Shown one piece after another: positions 40,163-52,099 of a stretch of DNA of 64,000 nt. The notes under the pieces are model-generated. The model was not told where the DNA came from, did no database searches, and saw nothing but the letters and a program-made list of their open reading frames with translations. This DNA is from Clostridia bacterium (lineage in GTDB: Bacteria; Bacillota; Clostridia; Christensenellales; UBA1242), in NCBI GenBank assembly GCA_045654505.1, contig JAZONM010000017.1:1556-65555 (forward strand), read 5' to 3'. Positions within the stretch are counted from its first letter, which is position 1. Each line of letters starts with the position of its first letter. The position numbers were made by a program, and so were the translations under genes.

Positions 40163-43129
40163 TTACGACTCTCCACCACCATCTGGTATAGGCTCTTGCC
40201 CACCATCTGGGTCAGGTGATTCGCCACCACTGCCCGGCTCCTCTTCCGCAGCTTTCTCTATGCGAATAGAAGTAATAGCTGGATTTTGAAGATTGTAGTA
40301 TGGGATAGTAGTGTAAATACTCGAATATATTTGTGGAGTAAGATACACAATGAAATCTAATTGAATAGGATTTGTACTTGTAGCAAGCACAATATCATCT
40401 TCAGTATTGCTTTCTGTACCATTGTTGTATACAGGATTTTCATCCATAGCATTGATATTGATACCTATCAAAATATATTGTGGCTCCATTTGCATATCAT
40501 ACACAATATCTTTTTTGTTTAATTGTACAAATGAGGATGCTTGTTTTCCATCACTTGGCTTGTAAGTACCTTGTGTGTAATCTAAGGTGTATGATAATGT
40601 GCCATTATAAAGCGTGAAATAATTGTTTAGCGCTGATATATTTAACATAGCATTGCACACGCCATCTACATCAATTCCACTTTCAGCATCTATTTCATCT
40701 ATTACCTTTTTTTCCTTATCAAGAGGGAAAGCTGAAAGATATATTTGTGCAGTAGCGCCTGTTTTTACAAACAACTTACTTCCAGATGCAGAAGAAACAA
40801 ATTCTTCAGCACCATCCTCACCCTCTCCCATATAATAAGAGTAAAGATTTTGTGCAAAATATGACACTGTATATTCTTTCGCAGATGTATACGCAACAAC
40901 TTTTCTATAAGTATCTTTTTCTGGAGTTGTGTAAGTCACAAATTCGCCATTAGCATCTGTTTGGAGAATACATGCAAATATTTTTACACTGCTTGCAAAT
41001 TCTTCACTATTTAGTAATGTTACGTTTTTTGCTGTAAGGGTCGGATTTGAACCTAAATCATAGAAGGTGTCCCTATCACTTATTTTTAGAATACTATTAT
41101 CAGACATATTTACAAGTTTTACTGTGTCTGCCAATCCGTCTTCATCTTTATCGTCAAAACTGCTTGTGTCAAATATTTCGTATTTTATTCCTTCATATTC
41201 ATACACATTGGATTCAGCAAGCATATAAAAACGTACATTTTTATACTCCAATTCATTTAGAGCATTTTCACTTATTACTAATGATTTATTTAGAGTGAAT
41301 GCATTAATCGTGTAAGCGTTTGCTTGCATAATCTTATCTTTACCAATATTGTTGTTATTGTGCAGCAATATCTTATTGTCATTAAAATTGTTCCAATTAA
41401 AACTTGTAGGAGTCGAATAATCAATTTTTAATTTGCTTTTTGCATATTTGTAAGTCGCATTGCCGTCGCTACTTATTGATTCAATTGAATAGATAATATG
41501 TAAAGAATTTACATTTGCTTCATTTGTAGGTTGAAGAGTGCGAATTGACCAAGTAGTACCTCCATTTTCTAGAGGTTGTTTTTTAATAGTAACATAATCT
41601 TCATTATATTTATACCATACTGGTTGGGTTTCTTCATCTACCACTTCATCAAATTTAATATACTCAAGGTATTGATTTCCATCAAGTCCAGTCACTTTTG
41701 GACCACTCTCAATAATCGGTTCACCCTCTAGTATTTCACCACCATTATCTATAACCTCATATTGCCATTGCGAATGCTCGCCTGGCACCTTAGCACCATC
41801 ACTAACAATATATTTAGTGTATGGCGCAACTGTAAGGTTTCCGATACTATCTTTCAAAAGTTTGTTGTCTGCGTCTGTTTGGGTAGATGAGTTTAGCACA
41901 ACACCAAGATAATTTAGATTGGTGTCACTATCACCTATTGTCTCCTCTGTATAACCCTTCTCATCAAATACTTTAAATGTAATTAGATCCTTACATGAAA
42001 TATTTGCAATCTCAACATCTGAAATTATTATACCTTGCTCACATGTCGCGAAAATAGCATCCATAACTCTAATAAGGCGCGCATGCATATCTCCAGTGTC
42101 AAGAAGTACTCGGACCCCTGTACTTTCGTCCACGACAGTATTTGTGTCCATAAATTCTTTATGACTGCCATATGCAATATATGGGTAGTACTTATTTATA
42201 AATGCATTAAGTTCTGTAATAGGATAATTGGTTAGATTGTTGTTGAGTGCATCATAAAGCCAACTCTCAACAAATTCTTTTTGCATAGCAAAAGTTTTGT
42301 GGATATAGGTCTTCATTCCTACATTTTGTGTAGCACCAAGAGCACGGAATGAGTATTTGAAATCAATAGTACCATTTAATTTTGAAATAGTCTCCACATT
42401 GCTATTTGTAGCCGAATCAATTTCTTTCACAAATTTCTTTGTGTCTCCTGACACTACATACAACATTTTTTTGTTTTTGTATTCTAAAATCTCGCTATTG
42501 GTAAACACTACCGCACCCTTTTTAGGAGCAATCGCATTTGAATTTAGAGTATTTAGAGTGATAGTTTTTACAGCATTTGGATTGCTAGGCGTAACAATCT
42601 TGCCTATATTGCTTCCTGATGTAACATCAACAAAATCCGAAGTTGAAAAACGAATATCGCTGGAAAGCAAAGGACGGTCTACCAATACCTTAATCGTATA
42701 GTCTACAAGTCGTGTACTATTTACAAATTTTATCTCAACCTCACCACCTACAGGTAGTCCGCTTGCATCTTTCTTAAATTTAAGAGTGAATGGTTTTCCC
42801 GAAATGATTGTCTCAGGAGTCTCAGCCAAAATGTCTTTACCATGAATATATTTTATAGACAGCACTTTCTCAGTAGCCTCAGCAGGCTCGTGAGAAACAG
42901 TAGCAGTAATATCAGTATCTCCGACCACAACCACTTCCATAGATTTATCCGACAGCGAAAGAACAGGTGCATTGTCACAAACAACTGTATCTTGCGAAAT
43001 ATTTAAATTGGTTATGTAGACGGCTTTTTGACTAAATGCCCCCGTGATCCACGCAATTCCGAGTGCCAAAACCACGACACCCAAAAGACCGAGCATACAA
43101 AAGCCAGAAATCTTTAAAAATTTTTTCAT
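40163..43129 (-). CDS. Large membrane-anchored extracellular protein (988 aa), unknown function
   Basis: N-terminal signal anchor FLKISGFCMLGLLGVVVLALGIAWITGAF. The body is long and beta-rich. The acidic G/P/E/S tail is EEPGSGGESPDPDGGQEPIPDGGGES. Confidence 0.7.
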   Translation of the reverse strand: MKKFLKISGFCMLGLLGVVVLALGIAWITGAFSQKAVYITNLNISQDTVVCDNAPVLSLSDKSMEVVVVGDTDITATVSHEPAEATEKVLSIKYIHGKDILAETPETIISGKPFTLKFKKDASGLPVGGEVEIKFVNSTRLVDYTIKVLVDRPLLSSDIRFSTSDFVDVTSGSNIGKIVTPSNPNAVKTITLNTLNSNAIAPKKGAVVFTNSEILEYKNKKMLYVVSGDTKKFVKEIDSATNSNVETISKLNGTIDFKYSFRALGATQNVGMKTYIHKTFAMQKEFVESWLYDALNNNLTNYPITELNAFINKYYPYIAYGSHKEFMDTNTVVDESTGVRVLLDTGDMHARLIRVMDAIFATCEQGIIISDVEIANISCKDLITFKVFDEKGYTEETIGDSDTNLNYLGVVLNSSTQTDADNKLLKDSIGNLTVAPYTKYIVSDGAKVPGEHSQWQYEVIDNGGEILEGEPIIESGPKVTGLDGNQYLEYIKFDEVVDEETQPVWYKYNEDYVTIKKQPLENGGTTWSIRTLQPTNEANVNSLHIIYSIESISSDGNATYKYAKSKLKIDYSTPTSFNWNNFNDNKILLHNNNNIGKDKIMQANAYTINAFTLNKSLVISENALNELEYKNVRFYMLAESNVYEYEGIKYEIFDTSSFDDKDEDGLADTVKLVNMSDNSILKISDRDTFYDLGSNPTLTAKNVTLLNSEEFASSVKIFACILQTDANGEFVTYTTPEKDTYRKVVAYTSAKEYTVSYFAQNLYSYYMGEGEDGAEEFVSSASGSKLFVKTGATAQIYLSAFPLDKEKKVIDEIDAESGIDVDGVCNAMLNISALNNYFTLYNGTLSYTLDYTQGTYKPSDGKQASSFVQLNKKDIVYDMQMEPQYILIGININAMDENPVYNNGTESNTEDDIVLATSTNPIQLDFIVYLTPQIYSSIYTTIPYYNLQNPAITSIRIEKAAEEEPGSGGESPDPDGGQEPIPDGGGES

Positions 43130-43257
43130 AGTTCTCCCATTTTTCTCTAGTATACCATCTAAAATTAGTATGAGTATATTTTTACAAAATAATTATATAT
43201 TTAATTACGTATTAAAGTCAAACGTTTGGGTAATATCATATGCGCAATTATACATAT

Positions 43258-44478
43258 TTACGGCAAAACAACCGTTTTGGTCAATATAGCATCAATACAC
43301 TCAAGAGTATCTGAGTATGTTTGCTTGTAATACCCCACTTGAAAATTGATATCCATTTCTCTGTCAACAGTAAATGTATACACTACTTTACCGTCTATAA
43401 GATTGGCCTCAGATAAAGTAATATAGTCAAGAGTAGTAGAGTCGGCTGAATTGACAAGTATACTCGTAAATTTACCTAATTCGCAAGTTGCAGATACTAC
43501 AAGTTTGTATTCTTTTCCTACTTCCAAATGTCCGTCTACGCTCACACCATTGTCCAAAACTTCCAAATTTAGCGATGTCGGCTCGTCATAGATTCGCACT
43601 TTATATTCTTTTGTGTACCAGTCTCCAACACCTCTCTCGTATGTCAAGGTAAGAGAGCACTCACCGGCACTTACCGCAGTATATCTTGTACCATCAAGCA
43701 CAAGTATGTCGCCTGCAACATTAAGTGTAGGCGCATTTACAGTATATTTTTGTGGAGATATATCCAATACAAAATCTCCGATTTCACCCACTTTCAAGTT
43801 TATGCCACCCGCAGAGCCTTTAAGTGTAACCTCAGTGATGTATCTATTGACAATTACATCAAATGTATATGTATCGTAATGAATGGTTTTATTTTCATCT
43901 CGAGACGCTGGCACTTTTAGTGTGACCTTGCATTCCCCTACCGCCAAAACATCAATTTTACCTGTTTTGTAGTCATAATTTACATTATCGCTCGAATACT
44001 CGACCAATACAGGATATGTAGTCTCTCCTTCGTAATGCGCAATGTTTGTAATATTGTCACGATTTCGATAATCCACCAAAACAACACTCTTTTGCAATGA
44101 GAATGTTTCAAAGTAAGTCGGTCTATTTTCTACAATTACTTTCTCGCGTGCATATACATATTTTCCTTCACTTAGTTTTCCACGCACATAAATATTTGTT
44201 GTTCCGGCCTTTTCACACGAAAAAGTTGTGCCGTCAAAACTTATTATGTTTTTGTCGTCACTTCCAAATTGTATTTCGGGATTTATCATGTTTGTGGAAA
44301 TTTCCGCATAATCAAAAAGTCTAAAACTATCCCCTACATATAAATTTTCGTCAATTTCAAACCGAATATTGAGAAAGTCTACCGATTTTATGTCTTTTTC
44401 GGTTTTCTCAGCTCCACAACCCGTCAAAACCCCGCAAAATATTAAAATAAGAAAACAAATTATATTTCTTACTTTCAT
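43258..44478 (-). CDS. Lipoprotein with Ig-like (Big_2-type) repeats
   Basis: Lipobox in MKVRNIICFLILIFCGVLTGCGAEK. Repeated motifs CEKAGTTNIYVRG, AVGECKVTLKV and AVSAGECSLTLTY are typical of bacterial Ig-like domains. Confidence 0.75.
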   Translation of the reverse strand: MKVRNIICFLILIFCGVLTGCGAEKTEKDIKSVDFLNIRFEIDENLYVGDSFRLFDYAEISTNMINPEIQFGSDDKNIISFDGTTFSCEKAGTTNIYVRGKLSEGKYVYAREKVIVENRPTYFETFSLQKSVVLVDYRNRDNITNIAHYEGETTYPVLVEYSSDNVNYDYKTGKIDVLAVGECKVTLKVPASRDENKTIHYDTYTFDVIVNRYITEVTLKGSAGGINLKVGEIGDFVLDISPQKYTVNAPTLNVAGDILVLDGTRYTAVSAGECSLTLTYERGVGDWYTKEYKVRIYDEPTSLNLEVLDNGVSVDGHLEVGKEYKLVVSATCELGKFTSILVNSADSTTLDYITLSEANLIDGKVVYTFTVDREMDINFQVGYYKQTYSDTLECIDAILTKTVVLP

Positions 44479-45794: not shown

Positions 45795-45833
45795 AAATTT
45801 TCTATACTTTATTTGATTATCAGAAAATAAAAA

Positions 45834-45890
45834 ATATAATCATTAAGCGATTCCGCAGGCATTAGCCGAGGACCAGCGAAATGATTATAT
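45834..45890. repeat. Hairpin unit A1 (11-bp AT stem enclosing GC-rich core)
   Basis: atataatcatt (45834-45844) pairs with aatgattatat (45880-45890). A T6 run follows. Confidence 0.85.
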
Positions 45891-46030
45891 TTTTTTAATA
45901 AAACAAACTTATAAAGTTTTGTATGCAGTAGATTTTGATTGATATATATAGAGAGAGTATCTTGAATAAAACGACCTTATAAAGTTTCATATTCAGTAGA
46001 TTTTGATTGATTATTAGAAACAAAAAAACA

Positions 46031-46082
46031 ATATCACCGAGCGATTCCGCAGGCATCTGCCGAGGACCAGCGAGGGATATAT
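46031..46082. repeat. Hairpin unit A2 (same core, different outer stem)
   Basis: The outer stem is atatc(a)cc (46031-46038) paired with gggatat (46074-46080), replacing the A1/A3 stem. The loop is ATCT instead of ATTA. Confidence 0.8.
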
Positions 46083-46159
46083 TTATAGTGTATCTTGAAT
46101 AAAACGACCTTGTAAAGTTTCGTGTGCAGTAGATTTTGATTGATTATTAGAAAAGAAAA

Positions 46160-46216
46160 ATATAATCATTAAACGATTCCGCAGGCATTAGCCGAGGACC
46201 AGTGAAATGATTATAT
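46160..46216. repeat. Hairpin unit A3
   Basis: atataatcatt (46160-46170) pairs with aatgattatat (46206-46216). Inner-helix positions change G>A and C>T together relative to A1. Confidence 0.85.
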
Positions 46217-46248
46217 TTTTCTTTTCGTCTATCAATTAAAACTACAAA

Positions 46249-46491
46249 TTAGTTTTGTTCGTCAATAATCTTCTTGATTTCTTGAAGATTGGCAAGAGTA
46301 AGCTCGTCTCTAATTTCCTTATATGCATTTTTGAAAGCATCTTTGATATCTTGCGAATATTCGTCATTATCAAGAGCAATATCACGCATTTTTTTAGCAA
46401 GCTCTACTACCTCTTCTTTTGTAGTGAAAGGACGCGCACAAATAACACGTTCGATTATTTCAAATTTGTAGATATTGGTATTTCTATTCAT
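46249..46491 (-). CDS. Small acidic helical protein (80 aa), last gene of the T4SS-like block
   Basis: ORF with no TM segment and an acidic helical composition. It lies 64 nt downstream of the giant gene. No family was recognised. Confidence 0.5.
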   Translation of the reverse strand: MNRNTNIYKFEIIERVICARPFTTKEEVVELAKKMRDIALDNDEYSQDIKDAFKNAYKEIRDELTLANLQEIKKIIDEQN

Positions 46492-46555: not shown

Positions 46556-49500
46556 TTATTTGCCCATTCCGTCGTCACTTTTACCCGAATCTGAAGGTGC
46601 AACTGGAGAACCACCACCTTTTGCTGCAATTTTATCATTTTCTACCATTTGATCAAAAGTAATAAATTCTTTACTGCCCAATTCCTCTTCTGCTATTTCA
46701 TCTATTTGTTCTTTATTCAAAATTTTTCCATTAACTCTTAGATTATAGTTATTACGTTGTTGCAAATTTTCCATAATTAAAGCAGATTCCTCATCTACTG
46801 GCTTGCCATTTTCATCGACCAATCCTAATTGCTCAGCATGTTCTAAATAATACTGAGCACCATTTTTATTATATGTCACAATGAAATTTCTGATTTCTGG
46901 ATCTTTCAACATCTCTTCTATATTCTCCGGAACCTCCATTCCAGGATTTGAATACCTATAATCTATAAATGCCATTAGTTCGGATATACTATATTGATTA
47001 AATTCTTCATGAACTGGAATATCAGGTTTTTCATAGTTGCCATTTATTAGGCTATGCTCCACTCTGCTTTTTATTAAATACTCTTCAAAAGTTATTGGTT
47101 GATTTGGATCCAAACCATATTCCTCCAATACTTTCTTTTGCTCTTGTGTGATTTCATCATCAGTTTTAGTTTTATCTTCCTTTTTCTCGAGCTTTTGTTG
47201 AAGTCTTTCATAGCCAGGGAGAGCACGATTTATGTCAGGATGTTTATCTTTCAATTCCTCATTTTTAAGAAATAATGCTTTATAAAGCAAAGTACCATGT
47301 CTACTCGCAGAAATAACGATATTCATATTATCTCTATCCATAAAATAATTTTGATCGTACTTATGTGATAATATATTCAACATATCTTTGCCAGTTTCTT
47401 CTCGTTTGAGACCATCATAACCGGTAATATTGCCAACAGATGCTACTTCGATAATATGTGCATATTCAGTCATTTTTTCATCGGATACATCATTGAATAG
47501 ATCTCCTACACGATTTTTATTTATTGCAAATGTGCTATTTTTTATTTTGTTTAAATTTTCCTCCCTAGTACTTTCACTACCTGGGCTTACTGGTTTTGGG
47601 TCTGCAGAAGAACTTTTTTCTCTTTCACGTTCTACTATATCATCAAATGAAGACACATCTTCTCCATATACTTCCTTATATTTAGCCTTACGCTCTTCTT
47701 CTATTTCATCCTCAGTTTTTGGAGTTCCATCTTCATTTTCAGGATTAATATCTCCTAATTTCCCTGAAATAGTAGTCATTGGCTCAATTGCATTTACTAC
47801 AGCCTTATCTGTAATATTGTCAAATATTGGAGATGCACCATAGATCAATACACCTTCTTTAGTATTTTCTACAATTATACTCATAAGTTTTGTATTATTG
47901 TACAATGCTTTTTGTTGGTCAGTCATTCCCGACTCTCTAATCTCTGATCCATCAGAAGAAAGAATAGTATAACACATATCAATTTCGTCTTCTGATAATG
48001 TATTAAGTTTTTCTTCCAATACAGCTCTATTTGCAGGAATTGCCTGTCCAAGTATATATGCCTTCTTTTCTTCAATGGTACGAGGTTTTTCTTCTTCGGC
48101 AGGACCGGCAAGTTTTGCCTCCTCAATTGCTACCATTTCTTCATATGACAACATCTTATCACTACCATAAACCTCCATATACACTGCTTTACGATCAGCC
48201 TCCAAGTCGCCTAGACTTCTTGGAGTACCATCAGGGTTTGTAGTAGGTATTGCTGCCAATTTGGAATTTAACTCTTTTTTAGTCTCAAGGGCTTTTTTCT
48301 CCGCATCTGTAAGACTAATGATACCCTTTTCTTCAAGTTTTTCATAAAACTCAGGGCCATTTTTATGATATTTAATAATGAAGTTGCGCACTTCAGGATC
48401 TTTAAATTCTTTTATGTTTTCAGGGTCACTTATTATTGCAGTAAGTATTTTTTCATTATTCAAATCTTCACCTAGTAAAACAAATATATCAGAATACTTA
48501 TCTAGTGTAGCTCTGTCCATTATTCTATCATTTGTTTCCATAAAGATAGGTCTATCATATGCAGGATAAGTATTGTTTTTTATATTCTCACGCATTTTCA
48601 AGACTTCTTTTTTCGCCAATTTATCAAAGTATTCTGATTGCCTTTTAGCCAATCCTAAATACCATTCATATGCCTTATCTATGGCTTTTCTACGGCTGTC
48701 TTTAGTAGCATAACTACCCGCAACAGCTACTGGAGTGTATTTCCAAGCAGTAGTAGGATTTTTATCCTCACCACCAGTAGTGCTTAGTAACACAGGATCA
48801 ACTCTAGGTGAATTCATCTCAACAATCTTTTCTCTGCATTTTTGATTTCTGTGTCTCTCAATCTCAGATTTTCCTACTGCACTCAAAATTCTTAAAGTAA
48901 ACTCATCAGTTTTTCCTTTTTCTTCAAGTTTTGCAGCAAGAACTTCACTATTTATTGTAGTAACACTAGCACCCGTCTCATCTAATGAAGTAACTACTAT
49001 TGTACTATATACATCTTCTCCAAGAACTTCCTTTGCAATCGCAAGTACATTTTTACGACGATTGTTTATCACTCTATTACGTATACCTTCTTCAGACTCA
49101 TCTTCAGGCAAGACTGGTTGGCTTGCTATAAAGTCAAACCCTACCATTGCAGACTTCTGTAAATCTGCTTTTACTTCGTCAGATGACTCATTGTATGCTT
49201 TTTCCAAAGCTGCAGAAGTATTTGTTATACTACCGTTGTATTTATTGTTTACTTCTTCTTTATGAGATTCATAAGTAGTGTATGCCTCATCTTCACCCTT
49301 TTCTGCAAGGTCAACATAGTATTGTGCATCATAAGTAGCTATAGTATCTAAGTCAGCATTGATACTTGCGACCATTTCAGGAGGCAAAACAAGACAGTAT
49401 CTATGTTCTGGATCAGGACCACCAATAAGATTGATTACCCCTAGTTCGCCTTTTTCCGCTTCTTCTCGGGTCAAAACCTTAATTTCACCTTTCGAAGCGT

Positions 49501-52099: not shown

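Follow-up and report, generated by a model that had tools for sequence, protein, structure and literature searches.

A hypervariable 1847-residue orphan protein and its conserved 80-residue neighbour as a candidate substrate-partner pair at a type IV secretion locus of gut Clostridia

The window analysed here is a 64,000-nucleotide stretch of contig JAZONM010000017.1 from a Clostridia bacterium. On its minus strand, at 46556..52099, lies a gene for a soluble, acidic protein of 1847 amino acids (aa), which belongs to an orphan family and which we call the giant. It sits between virB4, encoding an ATPase of a type IV secretion system (T4SS), and the gene for p80, a conserved acidic protein of 80 aa (46249..46491, minus strand) that is the constant partner of the variable giant. 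We favour, at a probability of roughly 40%, a reading in which this T4SS exports the giant as a polymorphic substrate and p80 is its conserved partner; its export and target, together with the roles of p80 and of the giant's repeated modules, are what we infer. The reading rests on the lack of a Sec signal, the position between the ATPase and p80, the presence of a coupling protein where no relaxase was found, a divergence beyond that of nearby surface proteins, and the exchange of alleles within the species.

Divergence and mosaicism of the giant

The giant diverges far more than any of its neighbours. Relative to the sister species (locus L137), VirB4 is 97% identical, p80 96%, the coupling protein VirD4 93% and the product of the housekeeping gene fba 87%, whereas the surface proteins p406 and p988 are 61% and 68% identical, a VirB6-like membrane protein 60% and the giant 33%. 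When the window is compared with the conspecific loci L001 and L003, flanking DNA is 96-98% identical and the proteins 97-100% (pilin1 96-98%), with two exceptions, the giant at 76-86% and the VirB6-like protein at 65-84%. The ratio of nonsynonymous to synonymous substitution rates (dN/dS) is 0.26-0.64 for the giant, 0.23-0.41 for the VirB6-like protein, about 0.1 for one surface protein and 0.02-0.06 for VirB4 and VirD4. The giant is therefore constrained, yet far less so than its neighbours.

The divergence is distributed in blocks, such that stretches with a synonymous rate (dS) above 1 adjoin stretches with a dS of 0.02-0.04. An N-terminal body (residues 1-905; 49385..52099, minus strand) is ∼99% identical in all three conspecific alleles and ∼20-30% identical to that of the sister species. 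The middle block that follows (residues 906 to about 1214-1220; 48458..49384, minus strand) is represented by a divergent allele in one conspecific, with a dS of 1.27 against 0.04 in its flanks. Inside this block lies an invariant island (residues 1106-1150; 48650..48784, minus strand), which reads STTGGEDKNPTTAWKYTP...AGSY...AI.KAYEWYL. The last ∼340 residues of the window allele share no nucleotide similarity with the two other conspecific alleles. In independent cattle and gut metagenome contigs, a segment of 1016 nucleotides (nt), which begins after the conserved linker SADPKPVSPGSE and reaches the stop codon, is replaced by 611 nt that cannot be aligned and that carry a single module, and the window's own version was seen at ∼95% identity in another sample (run X4). 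Allele and metagenome comparison together delimit a swapped C-terminal cassette at residues ∼1510-1847 (46556..47573, minus strand), comprising the last two modules and the tail. As judged from these alignments, the giant receives whole blocks by recombination. An earlier reading of this DNA from its sequence alone (hereafter the sequence-only reading) had left the giant as a secreted substrate or effector, a cytoplasmic scaffold or a transferred protein; extreme divergence combined with mosaicism favours a putative substrate or effector over a cytoplasmic scaffold.

The C-terminal third, in which the sequence-only reading had noticed an internal duplication and four short acidic motifs, resolves on alignment into four tandem modules of ∼120 aa, of which the duplicated peptides and the motifs are parts. 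Both peptides exist, with coordinates that require correction: residues 1234-1259 correspond to 48323-48400, not 48378-48400, and residues 1733-1759 to 46823-46903, not 46881-46907. The four motifs fall at residues 1305-1323, 1472-1489, 1656-1675 and 1805-1819. All modules are on the minus strand. Module 1 (residues 1215-1330; 48110..48457) is helical in an AlphaFold2 model, with a predicted local distance difference test score (pLDDT) of 70-85; modules 2 (residues 1380-1496; 47612..47962), 3 (residues 1566-1683; 47051..47404) and 4 (residues 1710-1826; 46622..46972) are defined by alignment and by a module hidden Markov model (HMM). Smith-Waterman z scores against shuffled sequences are 13.7 for unit 1 versus 2, 12.9 for 1 versus 4 and 5.3 for 2 versus 3. 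The module HMM, built from motif-anchored units, matches non-seed copies in relatives of the giant with E values from 1e-5 to 9e-8 and counts 4, 3, 3 and 2 modules in the four family members. Each module ends in the motif Y..EVYG...(S/T)(F/Y)(D/E)(D/E)hV. Elsewhere the structural models are less certain: that of residues 1-1000 (pLDDT 44) is mainly helical, with an α/β part at about residues 700-825 and a poor prediction for residues 1-700, and that of residues 860-1847 has a mean pLDDT of 59, with residues ∼869-1100 reaching 70-89 as helices and a small sheet.

A conserved N-terminal 900 aa followed, after a conserved linker, by cassette-like C-terminal replacement would also suit a polymorphic antibacterial toxin delivered by the T4SS, in which a conserved part serves delivery and a swappable C-terminal domain is toxic. 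T4SS-delivered antibacterial effectors exist in Xanthomonas and provide a precedent. However, the swapped cassette consists of more copies of the same helical module rather than a distinct toxin domain, Pfam contains no toxin domain that matches, and there are no orphan cassettes elsewhere in the genome. Nor is there a variable immunity gene: the sole downstream gene is that of p80, which is 96-100% conserved and lies across a 64-nt gap. With neither a toxin domain nor a variable immunity gene, we rejected this as the main explanation and consider it very unlikely.

The physical properties of the giant are those of a soluble protein. Its maximum 19-residue Kyte-Doolittle mean is 1.24, so it has no transmembrane segment and no signal peptide, as the sequence-only reading had held for hydrophobic segments; its isoelectric point is 4.8. 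The N terminus, MAKNTMSKWLQNY, carries neither a Sec nor a Tat signal peptide, and this absence, like that of a membrane segment, is a feature looked for in T4SS substrates. The sequence-only reading had also seen no HUH/relaxase-like histidine triad and no Cys-His hydrolase pattern; the sequence contains no HExxH or HxH motif and only three cysteines. The claim that there is no Walker motif needs one amendment, as a single [AG]xxxxGK[ST] string, APSDSGKS, occurs at residues 1834-1841 in the Gly/Ser-rich tail. Because this tail is disordered and the string is missing from other alleles, we rejected a Walker-A function and regard it as a chance match.

The gene itself is real and under constraint. 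The open frame extends from 46556 to 52174, and an ATG at 52099, preceded by AAAGGAGA, gives the 1847-aa product. ORF calls bear out its description as the largest open reading frame (ORF) in the window, the next being 1177 aa, and in four genomes of 34% G+C the frame stays open for 1698-1847 codons. The near-consensus promoter, TTGAAA-17-(TG)TATAAT at 52257-52229 (minus strand), and its leader of ∼120 nt are as previously described; it is the top-scoring promoter-like site in 12.6 kb, has a TG before the -10 hexamer and is kept in the sister species. So is the intrinsic terminator that had been placed between the giant and virB4, a 14-bp hairpin and T-run at about 52280..52311 (minus strand) that folds well and whose stem bases have changed without loss of the hairpin. 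The ribosome-binding site is likewise conserved. An Rfam scan of the leader and the locus gave no match.

A variable giant and an invariant p80

Relatives of the giant are few. Word-indexed searching of 5.8 billion proteins and exhaustive phmmer searching of 1.84 billion representatives with residues 1-1200 as query found only three in these 1.8-5.8 billion proteins, P0003 (86% identity), P0004 (77%) and P0006 (33%). All three are encoded at the same syntenic locus, between virB4 and p80. The family thus has four members and one partial relative, a 1145-aa protein in species G026 (VirB4 90% identical) that shares with the giant only residues ∼950-1150, including the island; the island HMM matches it at E 8e-12, near its own C terminus. 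Pattern scans of JGI metagenomes and IMG/VR found no further relative, and the genome itself holds no paralogue and no silent or orphan cassette.

Searches for known families were equally unproductive. The giant has no match at E <= 0.01 in Pfam, NCBIfam or PHROGs and shows no SNF2/DEAD helicase, methyltransferase, ArdA/ArdC or LPD domain and no Pfam relaxase match. PADLOC assigned none of the giant, p80 and the VirB6-like protein to a defence family (0 families). Sequence profiles of the giant family, of p80 and of a family from another clade ('A', below) found nothing meaningful in the PDB. Foldseek comparison of the AlphaFold2 models, a check that the sequence-only reading had proposed, identified no known fold: the best E values against PDB and BFVD were about 0.03-0.33, none significant, and such matches are uninformative because the proteins hit are long and helical, tape-measure proteins and nucleoporins among them. 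The earlier view that the giant does not resemble the helicase/methylase fusions common among giant ORFs therefore stands, and it extends to relaxases, antirestriction proteins and other known families. Two findings had been named in advance as counting against that view, a match to a known family and homologues mostly outside T4SS contexts, and neither was made. All homologues are indeed in a T4SS context; their constant neighbour, however, is p80 and not VirB4.

The gene for p80 begins 64 nt after the end of the giant gene, a gap that contains no terminator, and its product is 99-100% identical within the species although the giant cassette differs. Family, profile and PDB sequence searches place p80 in no known family. 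Every one of the 37 genus genomes encodes p80; none of 24 other families of the order does. Loci surrounding VirB4 homologues (20 + 80, the 80 being drawn from 222 VirB4-positive relatives) were surveyed for the slot that separates virB4 from p80. After virB4 come large plus-strand ORFs of 335-1823 aa, sometimes two, and then p80. The slot proteins are soluble, mostly acidic, free of Pfam domains and mostly unrelated to one another by BLAST and phmmer; the 38 distinct proteins found upstream of p80 fall into 18 families that phmmer does not connect, a minimum for the genus. Pfam, NCBIfam, PHROGs and PADLOC searches of p80 and 25 other slot proteins gave no match. The giant does occupy the post-VirB4 slot here, as the sequence-only reading had it, but in other species unrelated giants fill it.

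Several loci depart from the common arrangement. In one outgroup locus (L125; VirB4 ∼54% identical) p80 directly follows virB4 and there is no giant, and in another species (G031, loci L038/L058), whose VirB4 is 89% identical, a 335-aa protein alone fills the slot. In two more distant relatives (L130 and L133), ORFs of 3295 and >3344 aa directly follow virB4 and run to the end of the locus. In the other clade of the genus (L047-L056 and L068-L090), virB4 is followed by a conserved 'A' protein of ∼1700 aa (53-79% identity), a variable 'B' protein of ∼1250 aa (25-32%) and p80. The A protein carries a low-complexity stretch rich in Gly, Asn, Pro and Met, and A and B share a region of ∼140 aa. Homology between the giant and the A protein was rejected at an hhalign probability of 0.5%.

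In 12 genomes of the genus p80 is not beside virB4, one of these probably owing to a contig break. In 11 of the 12 loci a large (829-1731 aa), soluble, domain-less ORF nevertheless lies directly upstream of p80, amid housekeeping genes such as those for a Na/Ca exchanger, a ZIP transporter, an HD/TGS protein, a SIS protein and a Nuo51-like protein. Since unrelated giants precede p80 even in these relocated pairs, comparison across the genus indicates that the conserved unit is "variable giant + p80". The sequence-only reading had asked whether homologues always sit next to VirB4; the invariant neighbour is p80, and the pair lies away from virB4 in about a third of the genus.

These relocations raise the possibility that giant and p80 form a fast-evolving two-gene module of this genus that is independent of the T4SS, with a structural, conflict or cell-biological role, and that their place after virB4 is inherited synteny. 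About 11 of the 37 genomes carry the pair among housekeeping genes with no T4SS gene nearby, the adjacency of giant and p80 has outlasted relocation, so that the linkage under selection would be that of giant to p80 rather than of giant to virB4, and the genes of the T4SS block each have their own promoter and terminator. Against this, virB4 adjacency is the majority state in the genus and is also seen in outgroups, where loci with a VirB4 ∼53% identical again have a large ORF and p80 after virB4, so it is probably ancestral. Moreover, p80 follows virB4 in the L125 outgroup even where no giant is present, p80 and this type of VirB4 co-occur in 37 of 37 genus genomes, and no defence-system model in PADLOC matches. 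We consider an independent module unlikely.

The secretion locus and a possible route for the giant

VirD4, the VirB6-like protein, VirB4, the giant and p80 are encoded contiguously, in an order identical in all four members of the giant family. VirB4 (52350..55004, minus strand) is an 884-aa ATPase with an N-terminal membrane hairpin; it scores 589.3 bits against the mycoplasma VirB4 model NF045975, from integrative and conjugative elements (ICEs), for which the cut-off is 590. The extended VirB6-like protein (55130..57952, minus strand; 940 aa) matches NF045848 and NF045889 (the MMCAP2_0566 and Mbov_0396 families), and has its membrane segments in residues 1-470, followed by a hydrophilic C-terminal domain of ∼470 aa. 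The VirD4-type coupling protein is encoded at 58225..60237 (plus strand), in the same cluster as the giant, as would be expected for a substrate. Three genes at 60398..61763 (minus strand) encode VirB2-like pilins, identified through precomputed PF18895 assignments to their L001 and L003 orthologues. According to a 2025 review (PMC12857230), no other Gram-positive T4SS apart from those of Patescibacteria is known to have VirB2 homologues.

The sequence-only reading had assumed the setting of a conjugative element, which the wider comparison contradicts. VirB4 is found in 37 of 37 genus genomes at 63-97% identity, and in the closest species the cluster is flanked by the same housekeeping genes (fba, DUF1858, spoVT and spoVB-like); several species share the order of the flanking genes. 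The relaxase families PF03432, PF02486, PF03389, PF01076 and PF08751 had no match in the genome, which is 94% complete. Neither an integrase nor element ends are in view at the locus, which keeps its synteny and its chromosomal location in every species. Because VirB4 is universal in the genus, the housekeeping flanks are syntenic and the five relaxase families are missing, the T4SS is, on genomic grounds, a chromosomal, genus-core system and not a mobile or conjugative element. The same observations bear on the idea that the giant is an antirestriction or "polyvalent" protein transferred with DNA in conjugation. That idea gains from the giant being large, acidic, soluble and adjacent to VirB4, and from the closeness of VirB4 and the VirB6-like protein to mycoplasma ICE families, but the helicase, methylase, ArdA/ArdC and LPD domains of such proteins were not found, nor were the five relaxase families or any sign of mobility in a locus that stays in place in every species. 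We regard it as highly improbable.

Apart from the giant, hypervariability at the locus is confined to the VirB6-like gene. Its variable block, at about 55351-56174, lies in the C-terminal domain, which is swapped in L003 (17-50% identity) with the last ∼70 residues conserved; the N-terminal part is swapped in a different combination of strains. The two proteins vary in step across the three conspecific loci (n=3). The VirB6-like C-domain follows the middle block of the giant, the window matching L001 and L003 differing, whereas the VirB6-like N-terminal part follows the C-terminal cassette of the giant, L001 matching L003 and the window differing. VirB4 and residues 1-905 of the giant, which lie between these blocks, are near-identical in all three.

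This pattern prompts a different view, that the giant is not exported and acts instead as a cytoplasmic specificity or gating partner of the VirB6-like C-domain, and perhaps of VirD4. The two would then make the machine behave in an allele-specific way, as in self/non-self recognition or an exclusion-like distinction between strains. Polymorphic C-terminal domains of TraG, the VirB6-family protein of F and SXT, set exclusion specificity and offer a precedent. Shared hypervariability (the VirB6-like protein being 60% identical to that of the sister species and 65-84% identical among conspecifics), the location of the variable block within the hydrophilic domain and block-wise co-variation around an identical VirB4 all fit such a partnership. 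However, co-variation in three genomes is anecdotal, intracellular partners of conserved ATPases (93-97%) rarely diverge to 33%, known exclusion partners are small membrane proteins rather than giant soluble ones, and the pair is no longer near the VirB6-like gene in a third of the genus. On balance this explanation, too, has a low probability.

We therefore return to the giant as an exported substrate, for which a sequence of events can be proposed. The giant would be made in the cytoplasm from its own σA-type promoter, with no Sec signal or membrane segment to direct it elsewhere. The small, acidic, helical p80 would act as a dedicated chaperone or adaptor and pass it to VirD4, and the machine of VirB4, VirB6-like protein and pilins would export it, either onto the surface of the cell or into an adjacent one. 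The ∼900-residue N-terminal body might then provide the activity, and the two to four helical C-terminal modules binding or recognition. Because the protein would meet molecules of another organism, it would come under diversifying selection, and whole blocks would be exchanged between strains. T4SS substrates lack Sec signals, and many depend on a small acidic chaperone or adaptor that binds the coupling protein, as VirE2 depends on VirE1. CagF and IcmS/W are further T4SS chaperones or adaptors (PMC12857230).

Several points weigh against this proposal. It is hard to picture how a conserved p80 would bind partners unrelated in sequence. The giant contains no recognised T4SS translocation signal, and protein-secreting T4SSs are barely documented in Gram-positive bacteria (PMC12857230). 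In the relocated pairs no T4SS gene lies within ∼10 kb, and adjacency to the T4SS is accordingly not obligatory. A C-terminal acidic-Gly-Met tail (SDDGMGK here, window 46559-46580) occurs in 12 of 38 p80-linked giants against 9 of 672 control ORFs, with DNEGM, NEMGS, EFGMDA, GGGMS and DEGMDM among the other versions upstream of p80, in 4-6 of the 18 families. The pattern was chosen post hoc, and it is missing from the conspecific giant alleles and from 28 further post-VirB4 proteins. Given the post hoc choice and the failure on this second set, we treat the tail as a weak lead to an export signal.

A broader formulation, which we put forward tentatively and hold to be less likely than not, is that giants and p80 are polymorphic cargo-plus-adaptor pairs of a dedicated protein-translocating T4SS, a conjugation machine domesticated in tiny-genome gut Clostridia, a Gram-positive lineage. 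If so, this T4SS would parallel the essential one of Patescibacteria and would export orphan giants of fast turnover through which the cells depend on their neighbours or come into conflict with them, with the ∼120-aa helical module and the conserved island as novel recognition elements.

Further observations concern the organism and the surroundings of the locus. The source assembly is 1.01 Mb with 34% G+C and an estimated completeness of 94%. Its relatives are metagenome-assembled genomes from the gut of cattle, sheep, goat, deer, chicken and humans, labelled by their submitters as uncultured Clostridia or Christensenella; Christensenellales with genomes below 1 Mb are known from farm animals (PMC12306168). 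Four genomes carry second, divergent VirB4 copies (G016:C152, G033:C2, G043:C5 and G005:C7; 41-47% identity) with in-frame stops, which may be decaying second systems. The surface proteins compared above, lipoprotein-like p406 and an anchored protein of 988 aa, are encoded at window 40163-44478; they are 33-36% identical to those of species whose VirB4 is 90% identical, and 97-99% identical within the species. In the gap between p80 and fba (window 45800-46225), GC-rich hairpin repeats vary in copy number between metagenome samples, contigs skipping 135 or 164 nt at 46051/46080-46216, and the repeats align with those of L003 in shifted registers.

Comparison with known systems

Whether Gram-positive T4SSs became dedicated protein translocators is a long-standing question (2025 review, PMC12857230). 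The locus described here is a concrete candidate, with a hypervariable soluble giant and a conserved p80 beside a full set of VirD4, VirB6, VirB4 and pilin genes, and the candidate system is shared by an entire genus of Clostridia that live in ruminant and human guts and have genomes of ∼1 Mb. Full-text literature searching turned up no description of a unit of this type in Bacillota. The locus shows in addition that a domesticated T4SS with a pilin array, so far discussed for Patescibacteria, occurs in Bacillota. Should the giant prove strictly intracellular, the block exchange within a species in an 1847-aa orphan protein would still be striking.

Among protein-secreting systems, a close parallel is CagA of the Helicobacter pylori Cag T4SS, a large soluble protein without a Sec signal that likewise has a conserved N-terminal body and C-terminal repeated modules varying between strains by recombination. 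CagA is a proven T4SS substrate, exported by a diderm pathogen that acts on human cells, whereas export of the giant is our proposal; the two proteins have no sequence or fold similarity that we could find. The dedicated partner of CagA, CagF, docks on the coupling protein (PMC12857230), and it is larger than the 80-aa p80.

VirE1 of Agrobacterium and IcmS/IcmW of the Legionella Dot/Icm system resemble p80 in size, in charge and in the position of their genes. These small, acidic, helical proteins, encoded next to or together with T4SS substrates, keep the substrates export-competent or present them to the coupling protein. They share no homology with p80, for which the corresponding role is conjectural, and the gene order differs, VirE1 preceding a conserved substrate and p80 following a hypervariable giant. 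The tandem-BID Bep effectors of Bartonella resemble the giant in their variable number of helical C-terminal modules of ∼100-140 aa and in a short tail. However, the giant has no BID match (best Foldseek E 0.33), its tail is acidic and Gly-rich where that of the Beps is positively charged, and the Beps belong to another phylum and another class of T4SS.

Two further systems bear comparison. The 89K T4SS of Streptococcus suis, which secretes SspA-1, is the only protein-secreting T4SS reported from Gram-positive bacteria (PMC12857230); SspA-1 is a subtilisin-like protease of a known family secreted by a pathogenicity-island T4SS, in contrast to an orphan giant encoded at a genus-core one. The ICEs of mycoplasmas, with their CDS16 and CDS17 (Mbov_0396 and Mbov_0397) families, resemble this locus in VirB4 (589.3 bits to NF045975, just short of the cut-off of 590) and in the VirB6-like matches, yet the giant matches no mycoplasma ICE family and no mobility genes were found here. 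Those elements are mobile and carry a DDE transposase, and their CDS17 is followed by a membrane protein (CDS19) rather than by a giant soluble protein (PMC6030558).

As a whole machine, the system most resembles the T4SS of Patescibacteria, which is also of the monoderm MPF-FATA type, chromosomal, without a relaxase, equipped with an array of VirB2-like pilins and found in reduced genomes. That relaxase-less chromosomal system is presumed to be non-conjugative (Wang et al. 2023, reviewed in PMC12857230; PMC12102498). Its hosts belong to the candidate phyla radiation (CPR), whereas the host here is a member of Bacillota (Clostridium).

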